From assembly GCA_005878385.1 (NCBI GenBank), contig VBMN01000074.1:1-40672 (forward strand): a stretch of 40,672 nt of DNA, written 5' to 3'. The notes under the pieces are model-generated. The model did no database searches. It was given only the letters and a program-made list of their open reading frames with translations, and was not told where the DNA came from. The stretch's first letter is position 1. The number at the start of each line of letters is the position of its first letter. The DNA comes from Methanobacteriota archaeon. GTDB taxonomy: Archaea > Thermoplasmatota > Thermoplasmata > RBG-16-68-12. Both the position numbers and the translations under genes were made by a program. Shown here one piece after another: positions 4,970 to 8,176 of this stretch.

Positions 4970-5434
4970 TTAGGCTTTCCCGGTCGGGACGGCGTTCTGG
5001 GGCGGACGCGACGCGCGCTCGCGCAAGGCACGGTTCATCTCCTCGAATCCCCGGCGCACATCCTGTTCCAGCCGTCGTGCGAGGAACGGCAGAAAAATTC
5101 CGCGGAACCGTTCCCGCTGCACGAACCGCGTGGAGCCCGCGTTCAGCGGCGTGAGTTCGAAGATGTGTTCCCCGTCGAAGAGACCTCGGATGCCTAAGTG
5201 GCCCAACCAGCGGAACTCTTGGTTCGGGACGACGACCTTCACCGTCGGACGGAATCGCATCGGGCGGGTACCGGACGCGCCGAGCTCCACCTCGAGGCGG
5301 GATCCGACGTCCGGCTTTCCCTGAACCGACCGAATGAACGGGTTCCACTCAGGGTAGGCAGCGAAGTCCATCAAGACGTGCCAGACGCGTTCGACCGGCG
5401 CGTCGATATCCGTCTCGGTTTGGAGTTCCAACAT
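4970..5434 (-). CDS. SRPBCC (START-like) domain protein
   Basis: IDAPVERVWHVLMDFAAYPEWNP ... GFEEMNRALRER pattern. Confidence 0.88.
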   Translation of the reverse strand: MLELQTETDIDAPVERVWHVLMDFAAYPEWNPFIRSVQGKPDVGSRLEVELGASGTRPMRFRPTVKVVVPNQEFRWLGHLGIRGLFDGEHIFELTPLNAGSTRFVQRERFRGIFLPFLARRLEQDVRRGFEEMNRALRERASRPPQNAVPTGKA

Positions 5435-5437
5435 CGT

Positions 5438-5989
5438 CTAGCGGAGGAGCCCGGCCGCTTTCAGCTCTTCCGTGATCTTCTCGACCGCCTGCTCGACGTC
5501 CTGCGGCTTGCGGGCTCCCGTGCACACGAGTTTGCCGCTCCCAAAGAGGAGCACGACCACCTTCGGCACGTCGATTCGGTAGACGAGCCCGGGGAACTGC
5601 TCCGGTTCGTATTCCACCTTCTCGAGGCCGAGGGAAATCGCGATTGCGTTCAGATTGATTTCCGTGCCCAGGTCGGACGAGGCGACGATGTTCTGGACCT
5701 CGATCTCCGGGTTCTTCTTGATGGGGATGCCGGCGGCCTCGATCTGCTTCGCGACGATTTCAATCGCCTGCTTCACGTGCTCGAGGCTCTTCGCCCCCGT
5801 GCAGACGACCTTGCCGCTCCGGAACAGGAGGGTCGCGGTCTTCGGCTCCTTGAGGCGGTAGATCAGTCCGGGGAATTGCTCGGGCTCATACTCCGCGCCT
5901 CCGAGGGCGAGGGCGATCGCCTGGAGGTCGAGCTCCTCCCCAAGGGAGGTCGAAGCGACCACGTTCTCAATTTTGATTTTAGCCACCAT
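5438..5989 (-). CDS. tbp: TATA-box binding protein
   Basis: Two repeats of NVVAS/NIVAS..YEPEQFPGL.YR...F.SGK.VCTGA; ATG at 5989 preceded by GGAGGTGA SD. Confidence 0.98.
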   Translation of the reverse strand: MVAKIKIENVVASTSLGEELDLQAIALALGGAEYEPEQFPGLIYRLKEPKTATLLFRSGKVVCTGAKSLEHVKQAIEIVAKQIEAAGIPIKKNPEIEVQNIVASSDLGTEINLNAIAISLGLEKVEYEPEQFPGLVYRIDVPKVVVLLFGSGKLVCTGARKPQDVEQAVEKITEELKAAGLLR

Positions 5990-6096
5990 ATCACCTCCGA
6001 GCTTGCCGGCGGTCCCATGGAGCCTGCCGGGGCTCGGCAAGGTTGGGGAGTTAAATAGTCCTTTATAAGGTTTGGTCGCAGACGTGCGCATTCCGA

Positions 6097-7014
6097 CTAC
6101 TCAGCCGCCGACTCGCGGGCTCGCACGACCGCGTACATGGCCTGGTTCAACGGGACACCGATTCGGTGGCGGGCTGCCGCCCGGACGATGGGTCCCGTGA
6201 TGGCGTCGATCTCCGTCCGATGGCGTCGGTCCAGATCCTGCAACATGCTTCCACGATTCGCGGCGGTCCGCTTGGCGATCAACAAGGTGCGGTGACGGAG
6301 CTCCTCCGCGTCCACGTGGGCGCCCTCCGCTTTGGCGACCGACGCGGCCTCTCGACACACGGCCTCAAGGACCGCAAGGAGCCTCTTGTCGCGGATCAAG
6401 CGGCCATTCGGGACGCCGGCCACCGCCGCGAGCGGATTGATCGACGCATTCACGACGAGCTTGGACCACAGCTCGGTCCGGACGTCGCTCGTGACCTGCG
6501 CAACGATCCCGACATCGGCGAGGACGTCCCTCAGCCGGACGAGATCGGCCTCGTCCACGTGGGACCACGCACCGAGGACGGTGTCGCCGACTCCGGCATG
6601 TCGGATCTCACCGGGACCGACATAGGTCACGCCGATGGCCGTCGTGCCAGCGACGACGCGGCGCGCCGTCTTCGCGATCGTGTCCGCATTCCCGAGTCCG
6701 TTCTGGAGTGTCACAAACGTGGACCGATCCGCGAGGCGCTGCAGAGCGAGCATCGCGTCCGGCGTGTCATACGCCTTCGTCGTCACGAAGACGAGATCGG
6801 GTTTTGCGTTCTGCGGTACCGTCGTCGATGCATCGGGCTTCGCGATCACGGATGTCTTCCCCATGATGCGAAGTCCGTGCGCGCGAATTGCATCGACGTG
6901 TTCCGATCGTCCGATCAGCACGACGTTGTGTCGGCGCGAGAGCATTCCGCCGATGAAACTGCCCATCGCGCCCGCTCCGAACACGAGAATTTCCACAGTT
7001 CGCCGGAGTAGCAT
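6097..7014 (-). CDS. panE: 2-dehydropantoate 2-reductase
   Basis: GAGAMG Rossmann motif, TTKAYD, LQNGLG, WSKLVVNASIN, SMLQD, TEIDAITG; alternative GTG start at 6996. Confidence 0.92.
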   Translation of the reverse strand: MLLRRTVEILVFGAGAMGSFIGGMLSRRHNVVLIGRSEHVDAIRAHGLRIMGKTSVIAKPDASTTVPQNAKPDLVFVTTKAYDTPDAMLALQRLADRSTFVTLQNGLGNADTIAKTARRVVAGTTAIGVTYVGPGEIRHAGVGDTVLGAWSHVDEADLVRLRDVLADVGIVAQVTSDVRTELWSKLVVNASINPLAAVAGVPNGRLIRDKRLLAVLEAVCREAASVAKAEGAHVDAEELRHRTLLIAKRTAANRGSMLQDLDRRHRTEIDAITGPIVRAAARHRIGVPLNQAMYAVVRARESAAE

Positions 7015-7056
7015 CGTGTGAAAAAACGGTTTCGGTGCTCTCGACGCATTGCTCGC

Positions 7057-7068
7057 TTTTTATAAAAA
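7057..7068. promoter_or_regulatory. Palindromic TATA-like element in the divergent intergenic region
   Basis: TTTTTATAAAAA (perfect palindrome) in an AT-rich island between panE (-) and the micro-ORF (+). Confidence 0.55.
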
Positions 7069-7102
7069 TCGAAGAATGTCCGAATTTTCTCGCCTTCGCT
7101 AC

Positions 7103-7139
7103 TTTTAAAACCCCTTAGACTATTACAGATTTAGGGAGG
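7103..7139 (+). promoter_or_regulatory. TATA box and Shine-Dalgarno for the micro-ORF
   Basis: TTTTAAAA at 7103-7110; GGGAGG at 7134-7139, 6 nt before GTG 7146. Confidence 0.6.
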
Positions 7140-7145
7140 AAACAA

Positions 7146-7184
7146 GTGGCCAAGAAGAAAAAGGGCAAGAAAAAGAAGCGATAG
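7146..7184 (+). CDS. Putative 12-aa Lys-rich micropeptide MAKKKKGKKKKR
   Basis: GTG GCC AAG AAG AAA AAG GGC AAG AAA AAG AAG CGA TAG; SD, TATA and downstream hairpin plus T-rich tract; mixed AAG/AAA codons hold frame. Confidence 0.6.
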   Translation: MAKKKKGKKKKR

Positions 7185-7206
7185 GCCGCTTGCCCACACA
7201 ACCCTA

Positions 7207-7272
7207 GCGGTGATTCGCCCTTCGCGGCTCACCGCGCCGCACCCTTTTCCCGTTTTTCATTCCCTTTTATTT
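7207..7272 (+). terminator. Hairpin plus pyrimidine/T-rich tract after the micro-ORF
   Basis: GCGGTGA(7207-13)/TCACCGC(7229-35) stem followed by CCCTTTTCCCGTTTTTCATTCCCTTTTATTT; partly overlaps the 3' end of the convergent EndoV gene. Confidence 0.5.
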
Positions 7273-8176
7273 CTCTCGAGACTCGATCTGCAATTCGCAG
7301 CGCTTCCGGGTATCTGTGCTGCGTGGTCTTACGGACCAAATCCAGTGCGCGCGGGAGAGAAATGCGATGACCGACGGAGACGTAGATCGCGCGCGATCGA
7401 TTCGGCGGTGTCCACGCATATCCGCGTGTGACTCCGTCGATGCGGACCGAGTGAGCGGCCGCATGTTTCTCGGACGTCGGTTGAACGCGACCGGCGAGCG
7501 GATGCTTTGCCACACCGATCGTCGGCAGATCGAGGCGGATTCCCGTGTAACAGGCGATGCCGAACAGCGCGGGGTGCAATCGCCCGTGTCCATCGATCAT
7601 GAGCACATCGGGTCGCCGGGAGAGCCGCCGGACCGCCGACTCGATTCCCGGGAACTCTCGGTAGGCGAGGTACGTCGGGATGTATGGGAAATCCACCTGC
7701 CTTCGGACGAGGGCGATCTCAATCGTCTCGAGATTTCCGAGAGCGATGGAAACGGCGGCCGCATACATCTCATCCCCTTGGTAGCCCACATCGACGCCGC
7801 CGATGATCTCGATCGGTCCGGGAGCGTCCCGCTCGATGACCCTGGAAGCGAGTCGCCGCTGTTCAGCACGAAGGAGTCCGAGGAATTTGACGCTGGGCAA
7901 CGAGGCGACAATCCGGGAATCATCGACGCGACCTCGGGCGAGGTGGAGGCCCTCTCGCTCAAGGCGCCGCCGGGCTTGTGCGAGGACGGGCCGACCGTCG
8001 GCGCGGACGACGCGGTGGCCTTCCGGCGTGTCCGGATGATCTACTAGCCAGGTTGCGACGGCACGTGCGGCTCGTACGTCGCCGAGGGCGCGGGCGACGG
8101 CACCGCACGTCGCCACTCGCCTGCGCGGAATTTCGGCGAGGCATTGCGACACGGCCTTCGCGAAGTTCGAGTCCAC
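7229..8176 (-). CDS. nfi: Endonuclease V with N-terminal O6-alkylguanine-DNA alkyltransferase (AGT/ATL)-like domain
   Basis: N-terminal IPRRRVATCGAVARALG...ARAVA...GHRVV (AGT HTH/active-site region); EndoV motifs GVDVGY, PYIPTYLAYRE, IDGHGRLHP, GVAK, YVSVGH. Confidence 0.92.
   Translation of the reverse strand: MDSNFAKAVSQCLAEIPRRRVATCGAVARALGDVRAARAVATWLVDHPDTPEGHRVVRADGRPVLAQARRRLEREGLHLARGRVDDSRIVASLPSVKFLGLLRAEQRRLASRVIERDAPGPIEIIGGVDVGYQGDEMYAAAVSIALGNLETIEIALVRRQVDFPYIPTYLAYREFPGIESAVRRLSRRPDVLMIDGHGRLHPALFGIACYTGIRLDLPTIGVAKHPLAGRVQPTSEKHAAAHSVRIDGVTRGYAWTPPNRSRAIYVSVGHRISLPRALDLVRKTTQHRYPEALRIADRVSREIKGNEKREKGAAR

Follow-up and report, generated by a model that had tools for sequence, protein, structure and literature searches.

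The closest described counterparts of the gene considered here are the very small basic ribosomal proteins eL41 (eS32), bL37, bS22 and bTHX, which are tiny, nearly all-basic and unfoldable, and are encoded by free-standing genes that are often missed by gene callers. These proteins are about two to three times longer than 12 residues, are rich in Arg as well as Lys, and have been seen in ribosome structures. A candidate of the same general kind is found in contig VBMN01000074.1 (assembly GCA_005878385.1; the entire stretch of 40,672 nucleotides (nt) was analysed and is referred to below as the window), from an uncultured soil archaeon of the class Thermoplasmata, where a small open reading frame (sORF) encodes the peptide MAKKKKGKKKKR. 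The peptide differs from the eL41-type proteins in having 12 residues, in being Lys-only in its basic content bar one Arg, and in being known here from sequence alone. When the eL41 profile PF05162 was run against the whole genome, an 11.7-bit match was obtained elsewhere (contig C81) and none at the sORF, and all controls, including two archaea, stayed below the cut-off. The passages on L41e in Yutin et al. (2012; PMC3353972) describe it as missed in many genomes and patchy in archaea.

Two classes of regulatory element also invite comparison. Leader-peptide attenuators of the trpL/hisL type resemble the locus in combining a very short reading frame containing a run of one codon with a following hairpin and T/U tract, but the sORF has no downstream co-directional operon, no alternative hairpin pair was found, and the peptide sequence is itself conserved; an attenuator of this type is ruled out by position, the next gene being the convergent nfi, as it is also in genera g10 and g6 (genera and families of relatives are designated by handles, g1 being the host genus). 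Dual-function RNAs such as SR1/SR1P and RNAIII are likewise short structured transcripts that contain a micro-ORF (compare the g20 hairpin RNA below), whereas in the present case the reading frame is the only element common to the clades.

From the comparisons described below, the sORF can be assigned a probability of roughly 0.85 of being a genuine, free-standing and translated gene, and it appears to represent a real, undescribed micro-protein gene family among the very small basic proteins. The original prediction, made from the letters of the window, had proposed a real ultra-small basic protein belonging to no described family. The first part is supported by coding-type variation, by the fixed geometry of promoter and Shine-Dalgarno (SD) sequence and by contigs from RNA libraries, and the second agrees with the outcome of the database searches: three variants of 20-23 amino acids matched no Pfam or NCBIfam family at E values up to 10, a test weakened by low-complexity filters, seven homologous or related loci gave no Rfam match at E values up to 1, and no tRNA was detected near the sORF. 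No description of oligolysine sORFs was found in full-text searches of the literature, and the supplementary small-ORF tables of ribosome profiling studies could hold similar peptides. Neither gene callers nor protein databases detect genes of this size, and a conserved 12-codon gene widens what counts as a gene.

The promoter, SD sequence, reading frame, hairpin and T-rich tract that had been proposed were each found in place. The elements, as read from the letters or predicted where so worded, are:

7097-7110, plus strand: BRE-like (transcription factor B recognition element) CGCTAC and TATA box TTTTAAAA (TATA at 7103-7110), for which a promoter role is suggested by geometry
7130-7134, plus strand: putative transcription start, placed from the position of the TATA box and giving a leader of about 12-16 nt
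7134-7139, plus strand: SD sequence GGGAGG, 6 nt before the GTG at 7146
7146-7184, plus strand: 12-codon ORF running from GTG to TAG (7182-7184) and encoding MAKKKKGKKKKR, conserved in relatives
7163-7195, plus strand: possible mRNA helix between GGGCAAG (7163-7169, the Lys6-Gly7-Lys8 codons) and CTTGCCC (7189-7195), predicted in the minimum free energy (MFE) fold
7207-7235, plus strand: hairpin in the 3′ untranslated region (UTR), outer stem GCGGTGA (7207-7213)/TCACCGC (7229-7235), from the sequence and RNAalifold
7240-7272, plus strand: oligo-T region (ACCCTTTTCCCGTTTTTC...), a putative terminator that overlaps the last codons of nfi

Conservation and coding-type variation of the reading frame

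The 12 residues of MAKKKKGKKKKR comprise 8 Lys and 1 Arg, the Lys codons being five AAG and three AAA, and are encoded in a genome of 63.3% G+C in which AAR triplets account for 1.9% of all positions. At least eight AAR codons among the 11 that follow an ATG, GTG or TTG would be expected by chance 3e-7 times per genome. An exact degenerate 39-nt pattern for the 12 residues was found in 24 stretches among 185,579 GTDB species genomes, all of them from related Thermoplasmata metagenome-assembled genomes (MAGs). The close relatives are Thermoplasmata MAGs from soil, groundwater and sediment, related to Methanomassiliicoccales, and the expression signals of the unit have therefore been read as archaeal (BRE/TATA promoter, oligo-T termination).

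With positions 7020-7300 as the BLAST query, the unit was found in relatives belonging to the host genus, g1, and in a single genome from a different family, giving a set of 20 loci (the window's own and 19 from relatives). The reading frame is kept in all 20, with a canonical start codon in 19 and ACG in one, and in the nearer g1 genomes the whole unit is 80-93% identical over about 250-280 nt. A pattern search allowing up to two mismatches detected the sORF in 29 of 79 genomes of the order (two matches for the reversed-pattern control), distributed as 26/43 in family f1 plus the host genome itself, 2/4 in f6 and none in five other families. When length variants are included, a copy can be identified in 30 of 38 g1 genomes, the other eight being 53-93% complete.

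Variation among 16 distinct 39-nt ORFs from these genomes is largely of the kind expected of a coding sequence, as a search of relatives for synonymous-only variation and a conserved stop had been proposed to reveal. The first codon is ATG in 3, GTG in 8, TTG in 4 and ACG in 1; Ala is encoded by GCC, GCA, GCG and GCT, and Arg by CGA, AGA and CGC; Lys codons vary solely between AAA and AAG, bar three replacements; and the stops TAG, TAA and TGA are exchanged only for one another. Pairwise comparison gives 486 codon differences that preserve the class and 117 that change it, the latter count being inflated by one indel-shifted variant in the set, against a random expectation in which the class would be preserved by 21 of 117 possible single-base changes. 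As judged from codon substitutions, this shows that the peptide MAKKKKGKKKKR is under selection.

The signals for initiation are similarly constrained. The motif CGCTAC-TTTTAA(A/G) is present across genus g1. In a set of 40 distinct units, the start codon lies 41-45 nt downstream of the first letter of the TATA hexamer in g1 and g6 and 48-50 nt downstream of it in g10. Since an archaeal TATA box is centred about 26 nt ahead of the transcription start, the short leader listed above follows. Among the same units the distance from the end of GGAGG to the start codon is 6 nt in nearly all from g1 and g6 and 12 nt in those from g10, the exceptions in g1/g6 being two units of the ACG lineage (7 nt) and one other (3 nt). 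The relatives in g20, a genus of another family, have no SD sequence, and their ATG lies 31-32 nt downstream of a TATA-like box, the spacing that characterises leaderless mRNAs in archaea. The occurrence at like ORFs of two fitting solutions to initiation, one SD-dependent and one leaderless, would be hard to explain unless the ORF is translated.

Several observations weigh against the reading of the unit as a peptide-encoding gene. Both translation and peptide have been deduced from genome comparison rather than detected. In one lineage, represented by genomes G010 and G068, the start codon is ACG and the rest of the unit is intact, which implies that these genomes either initiate at a near-cognate codon or can do without the peptide. 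The original prediction had named frame-breaking indels and loss of the start or SD as evidence against a gene; the frame proved intact at every BLAST-found locus and the start canonical at all but one, and the ACG of these two genomes is the departure. The Gly codon is complementary to the invariant CGCTTGCCC, and part of the conservation may be at the RNA level. In-frame length variants (MAKKGKKGKKKKR, a 20-residue form and MQKKKGKKKKR; changes of +3, +24 and -3) are weak evidence of coding and have been given little weight as slippage of (AAG)n tracts proceeds in steps of three. Sequence divergence between families is rapid, and since the peptides are of low complexity, homology of the wider set is unprovable. 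Among the g20 units conservation is stronger in the 3′ hairpin RNA than in the peptide, so that in this genus, at least, a function at the RNA level is indicated, and the hints from neighbouring genes described in a later section are anecdotal.

The slippage-prone nature of the tract also bears on whether the ORF might be a neutral by-product, translated and functionless, of an A-rich bidirectional terminator or of an (AAG)n repeat. Length does vary in repeat-like steps, and T-rich terminators coincide with the K/E/R-rich protein tails of the convergent nfi and of a gatE-like gene elsewhere in the genome. Such an origin is nevertheless very improbable, as promoter, SD sequence, start and stop have all been retained in three genera and also in other contexts, chance alone would yield no such ORF, and identical amino acids are maintained over many synonymous changes.

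Genomic setting, transcript structure and RNA-level explanations

The sORF unit coincides with a local dip in G+C content (0.38-0.47, compared with about 0.6-0.7 in the flanks). The AT-rich island originally described between panE and the Endonuclease V gene is thus borne out by composition and by identification of the flanking genes, which are:

6097-7014, minus strand: panE (PanE/ApbA, ketopantoate reductase family), divergent neighbour of the sORF
7229-8176, minus strand: nfi (fusion of an N-terminal MGMT-type DNA_binding_1 domain with Endonuclease V), convergent neighbour of the sORF

On the plus strand downstream of the sORF there is no gene until 7978, where the next plus-strand ORF with a family is found, and the assertion that promoter and SD sequence have no other plus-strand gene to serve therefore holds. 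The EndoV domain of the nfi product ends at residue 298 of 315, leaving a 17-residue K/E/R-rich tail beneath the oligo-T region of the sORF unit; the DNA_binding_1-EndoV fusion is also present in three of four scanned Endonuclease V ORFs of relatives. The arrangement of the sORF with nfi and panE is kept in genera g1, g10 and g6. Of five genomes from other families of the order that were checked beside nfi, two carry a convergent Lys-rich sORF, MPKKIPKKKGKKSHK in the f4 genome and MAKKAAKKKTTKKSSKKKTSKKK in the f5 genome, and three do not. Between panE and the sORF promoter lies a palindromic TTTTATAAAAAT (7057-7069), which probably serves the divergent panE as its TATA box. Beyond panE, an ORF at 5438-6091 (minus strand) contains two direct repeats and by eye resembles a TATA-binding protein, which was the first indication of an archaeal host.

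Archaeal transcription termination occurs at oligo-T, and the region downstream of the sORF hairpin contains T-runs at 7245-7248, 7253-7257, 7265-7268 and 7270-7272. The ACCCTTTTCCCGTT that follows the hairpin is nearly invariant in g1, and T-runs are also carried by the g6, g10 and g20 units. RNAalifold retained the outer 7-bp stem of the hairpin across 16 g1 sequences, two of its seven pairs showing compensatory changes. Just past the stop codon, CGCTTGCCC (7187-7195) is invariant in 16/16 aligned g1 3′ regions, and the GGGCAAG/CTTGCCC helix is predicted in the MFE fold of all five g1 sequences carrying it; a tendency of the SD region to pair with CCCU/UCCC motifs close to the 3′ end is likewise predicted. 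In other genera a hairpin of unlike sequence occupies the equivalent 3′ place. The 3′ regions of g1, g6, g10 and g20 are wholly different and unalignable, global alignment yielded no consensus for a 3′ structure shared across genera, and the sORF is the only part that the clades have in common.

These predicted pairings are relevant to the proposal that it is the translation of eight Lys codons that matters, and not the peptide. In such a translation sensor, pausing at scarce Lys-tRNA or on a polybasic nascent chain would alter the fold of the RNA, its lifetime or read-through antisense to nfi. The helix between ORF and 3′ UTR and the pairing of the SD region with the 3′ end could serve this purpose, no feature other than Lys richness is common to all relatives, the remaining residues having drifted, and the convergent overlap with nfi is maintained in f1, f6 and the single genomes checked in f4 and f5. 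The proposal is nonetheless considered unlikely, since there is no co-directional gene downstream, the contexts in g20, DPANN archaea and bacteria are unrelated, and a single hairpin precedes the oligo-T region, with no alternative terminator/antiterminator pair found. Moreover, a sensor of codons has no need of an exact K4-G-K4-R, of Ala or Pro at position 2 or of a C-terminal KKKKR, as seen in three genera.

A further possibility is that the transcript of about 130 nt is a small regulatory or dual-function RNA that acts by its structure or by pairing of its purine tract, the ORF being secondary or incidental. Conservation covers the whole unit and not the ORF alone, the ACG lineage is otherwise unchanged, and the RNA folds somewhat better than shuffled sequences (z = -2.1). 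A weak full-length alignment was also obtained to Rfam family IMES-5 (RF02995), in which a purine tract likewise pairs with a downstream pyrimidine tract. The IMES-5 assignment was rejected, its score of 26.8 bits (E 0.02) being far under the gathering score of 96.1, and the first hairpin of such a structure would take in the TATA box. For the window sORF an RNA of this kind must be regarded as improbable, and less likely than a translation sensor, because substitutions track the codon structure, starts and stops are replaced only by starts and stops, and no consensus structure is common to the genera. A regulatory or dual-function RNA is plausible for g20, in which a Lys-rich sORF is followed by a hairpin RNA of about 65 nt (GGGGATTGCTTGCG ... 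GGATCCCC; L132:1404-1500, minus strand, and 11 orthologues) with 24 pairs, 12 of them showing compensatory changes, and an invariant asymmetric internal loop. This RNA has no Rfam match, and the accompanying g20 peptides are highly variable in sequence, with lengths of 10-21 residues, and always start MPKK or MAKK.

Contigs from two metatranscriptome libraries provide weak evidence that the unit is transcribed. Of 20 public sequencing runs that contain the stretch, two, from different studies, are metatranscriptomes, and their contigs were aligned to positions 6700-7700. Contigs of a soil RNA library cover 7148-7268 and 7151-7317, and a 139-nt contig of a groundwater RNA library (X20), with a word depth of 16, covers 7133-7213 with six extra letters upstream. 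The contigs are 88-96% alike to the window and run on into unlike sequence; they therefore derive from relatives, and their ends are uninformative. They reveal neither strand, ends nor translation, and DNA can occur in RNA libraries. No contig lies over the flanks (6700-7132 and 7318-7700), and these uncovered parts have not been counted as evidence of high or independent expression.

Lysine-rich micro-genes in relatives, in the host genome and in other phyla

Units resembling the sORF can be detected more widely in the class. A pattern for the C-terminal half, run on 401 class genomes, matched in 28/33 genomes of f1, 3/3 of f6 and 3/59 of f17, with one control match, and a looser pattern matched in 16/33 of f1, 10/59 of f17, 4/8 of f29, 1/2 of f27 and 1/13 of f15, with two control matches; the f17 tally takes in an unpublished genome (G339), as does a further tally of 15 in 46, and none of the sequence of G339 was used. 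Three of the four f29 matches are one identical, clean 15-codon ORF, the fourth ending in TGG and not in a stop, and the f29 units, which are from Methanomassiliicoccales MAGs, consist of a TATA box, GGAGGTG, the 15-codon ORF, a hairpin and oligo-T. The Lys-rich look-alikes beyond the class, described below, are treated as being of the same kind as the window sORF, and homology as one family is not claimed.

The window sORF is not the sole Lys-rich micro-ORF of its genome, as a rescan that omitted the SD filter revealed two more that are conserved:

G000:C25:13627-13680, plus strand: second micro-gene, MASKKSKTTKKAKKGKR, preceded at 12 nt by GGAGGAG and facing a convergent (gatE-like) gene that has a GatB_Yqey domain
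G000:C142:5667-5756, minus strand: third basic micro-ORF, core KKAAKKKAYY[SA]GRKE, whose ATG follows a TATA-like box at about 25-30 nt

The region of the second micro-gene was found by BLAST in 29 of 38 g1 genomes, and an ATG-to-stop ORF of 14-18 residues is present in all 25 loci fetched (L349-L373). Its Lys positions are fixed and its spacer residues vary among A, S, T and H, a pattern that clearly marks the peptide as a target of selection. The layout seen at nfi and the window sORF, in which a K/E/R-rich protein tail lies over a T-rich terminator, recurs where the gatE-like gene meets the second micro-gene. The third micro-ORF, counted as 29 residues from the shorter of its starts or as 29-39 if the longest possible start is taken, is intact at 8/8 loci (L375-L382) and, searched as 29 or 33 amino acids, has no NCBIfam match at E values up to 10.

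Look-alikes beyond the class were sought among GTDB species genomes with the pattern ATGGCN-AAR-AAR...AAR-AAR-AAR-ARR-stop, and 80 of the at least 120 stretches returned were analysed. Of the 82 matches in these, 59 are clean in-frame ORFs, compared with about 36% expected; the 3-nt periodicity of AAR repeats accounts for part of this excess, which is therefore no more than a hint. Many of the matches come from genomes of 60-72% G+C, belonging to Rokubacteria/Methylomirabilota, Verrucomicrobia, Actinobacteria, Acidobacteria, Chloroflexia and Burkholderiales, and further matches come from DPANN archaea. The look-alikes inspected are preceded by a strong SD sequence at a distance of 6-9 nt and followed by a hairpin or T-run. 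That such ORFs are present in DPANN, and also in several bacterial phyla whose very high G+C makes Lys-rich ORFs especially unexpected, suggests a general and searchable phenomenon. No neighbouring gene is common to the bacterial look-alikes among 14 loci, and such varying surroundings would fit free-standing genes. The variety of contexts, together with an SD sequence and start codon of its own, also makes it unlikely that the sORF is the detached arm of a ribosomal protein.

The neighbours that were seen give hints of a link with translation. Seventeen look-alike loci were examined, 14 of which are DPANN or unclassified-archaeal; in four of these 14 the sORF comes immediately after the gene for an aminoacyl-tRNA synthetase, in one it is beside RelA/SpoT and in one it lies between genes for a DRG-type GTPase and SRP54. 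At the four synthetase loci, which are from DPANN (L243, L250, L275 and L279), a Lys-rich micro-ORF with a strong SD sequence lies about 130 nt behind the synthetase gene on the same strand, the synthetases being two with an HGTP_anticodon domain, a SerRS and an ArgRS. In Rokubacteria/Methylomirabilota the unit is convergent to rpmB (bL28), as confirmed with Pfam in all three loci tested. At L273, L301 and L291 the micro-ORF MAKKK(A)AKKKKK is present as two tandem copies, each of which has its own GGAGGTGA, and a conserved hairpin, GGTGGGGGGTGGCGGCCTCCCACC, lies behind them. At L261, from an uncultured archaeon (minus strand, about 5048-5083), MAKKKAAKKKK is immediately followed by a second Lys-rich ORF with a Cys-rich end.

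It is tempting to extend these similarities to an overlooked, prokaryote-wide class of free-standing oligolysine micro-genes, of 10-30 codons and the form M[AP]KK...KKK[KR], with their own promoter or SD sequence and terminator and often with paralogues, spanning Thermoplasmata, DPANN, Rokubacteria/Methylomirabilota, Verrucomicrobia, Actinobacteria and others, whose products would be encoded polycations acting as a new type of accessory factor for the translation apparatus (rRNA or tRNA). Taken as one joint proposal this is speculative and, on balance, doubtful. If it is true, the products would rank with the shortest conserved ones so far described for any gene.

Possible product and role of the peptide

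The features of the window sORF suggest the following course of expression. The BRE/TATA promoter would fire about 12-16 nt before the strong SD sequence, the ribosome would initiate at the GTG at 7146 and read 12 codons to the UAG, and the mRNA of about 130 nt would end in the hairpin and the oligo-U tract that overlaps the 3′ end of nfi. The initiator Met is removed before Ala or Pro, one of which occupies position 2 in nearly every relative; the 11-mer AKKKKGKKKKR, with a net charge of about +9, is the probable mature product. The peptide has no hydrophobic side chain; it therefore cannot fold, and would act solely as a polycation on a polyanion.

The original prediction had suggested an eL41-like ribosomal peptide, a protamine-like condenser or a poly-Lys translation sensor as possible roles. 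By analogy with the very small basic ribosomal proteins, the partner may be an RNA of the translation apparatus, either rRNA or tRNA. This reading is preferred because of the exact conservation of the peptide and the hints from neighbouring genes towards the translation apparatus. That the peptide is an RNA-binding polycation is put at slightly short of even odds, and that it is bound specifically to the ribosome is a more tentative suggestion, although somewhat better founded than the prokaryote-wide class. Exact conservation across three genera suggests a defined site over bulk neutralisation of charge. A ribosome- or RNA-bound peptide would represent a new component of the archaeal translation apparatus in a large uncultured soil lineage, and would show that an encoded oligolysine is used beside, or in place of, small-molecule polyamines.

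The peptide could instead be a protamine- or polyamine-like counter-ion for DNA, the nucleoid, polyphosphate or other polyanions, and have no part in translation. It is pure charge, and the several paralogues per genome and the tandem copies in Rokubacteria would suit a bulk agent. Surveys of spermidine synthase (PF01564) in 58 genomes of the order and in 295 of the class were also in keeping with this role, the domain being found in 0/58 genomes of the order. Among the high-quality genomes scored in sORF-bearing families it was found in 0/8 of f1, 0/1 of f6, 0/2 of f4, 0/40 of f17, 0/24 of f29 and 0/1 of f15, and the families that do possess it (f24, 45/45; f20, 10/10; f25, 6/6) gave no match to the sORF pattern. 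At the family level, however, the anti-correlation is not significant (P ~0.19-0.26), because many families are without both, and 7 of 10 bacterial genomes with look-alike sORFs do have PF01564. Exact conservation within f1 and f6 also favours a specific site over a bulk ion, and a counter-ion role is accordingly held to be about as unlikely as a translation sensor. The narrower idea of the peptide as a polyamine surrogate was dropped, given the outcome of the family test and the bacterial carriers. PF01564 itself is restricted to a few families of the class.

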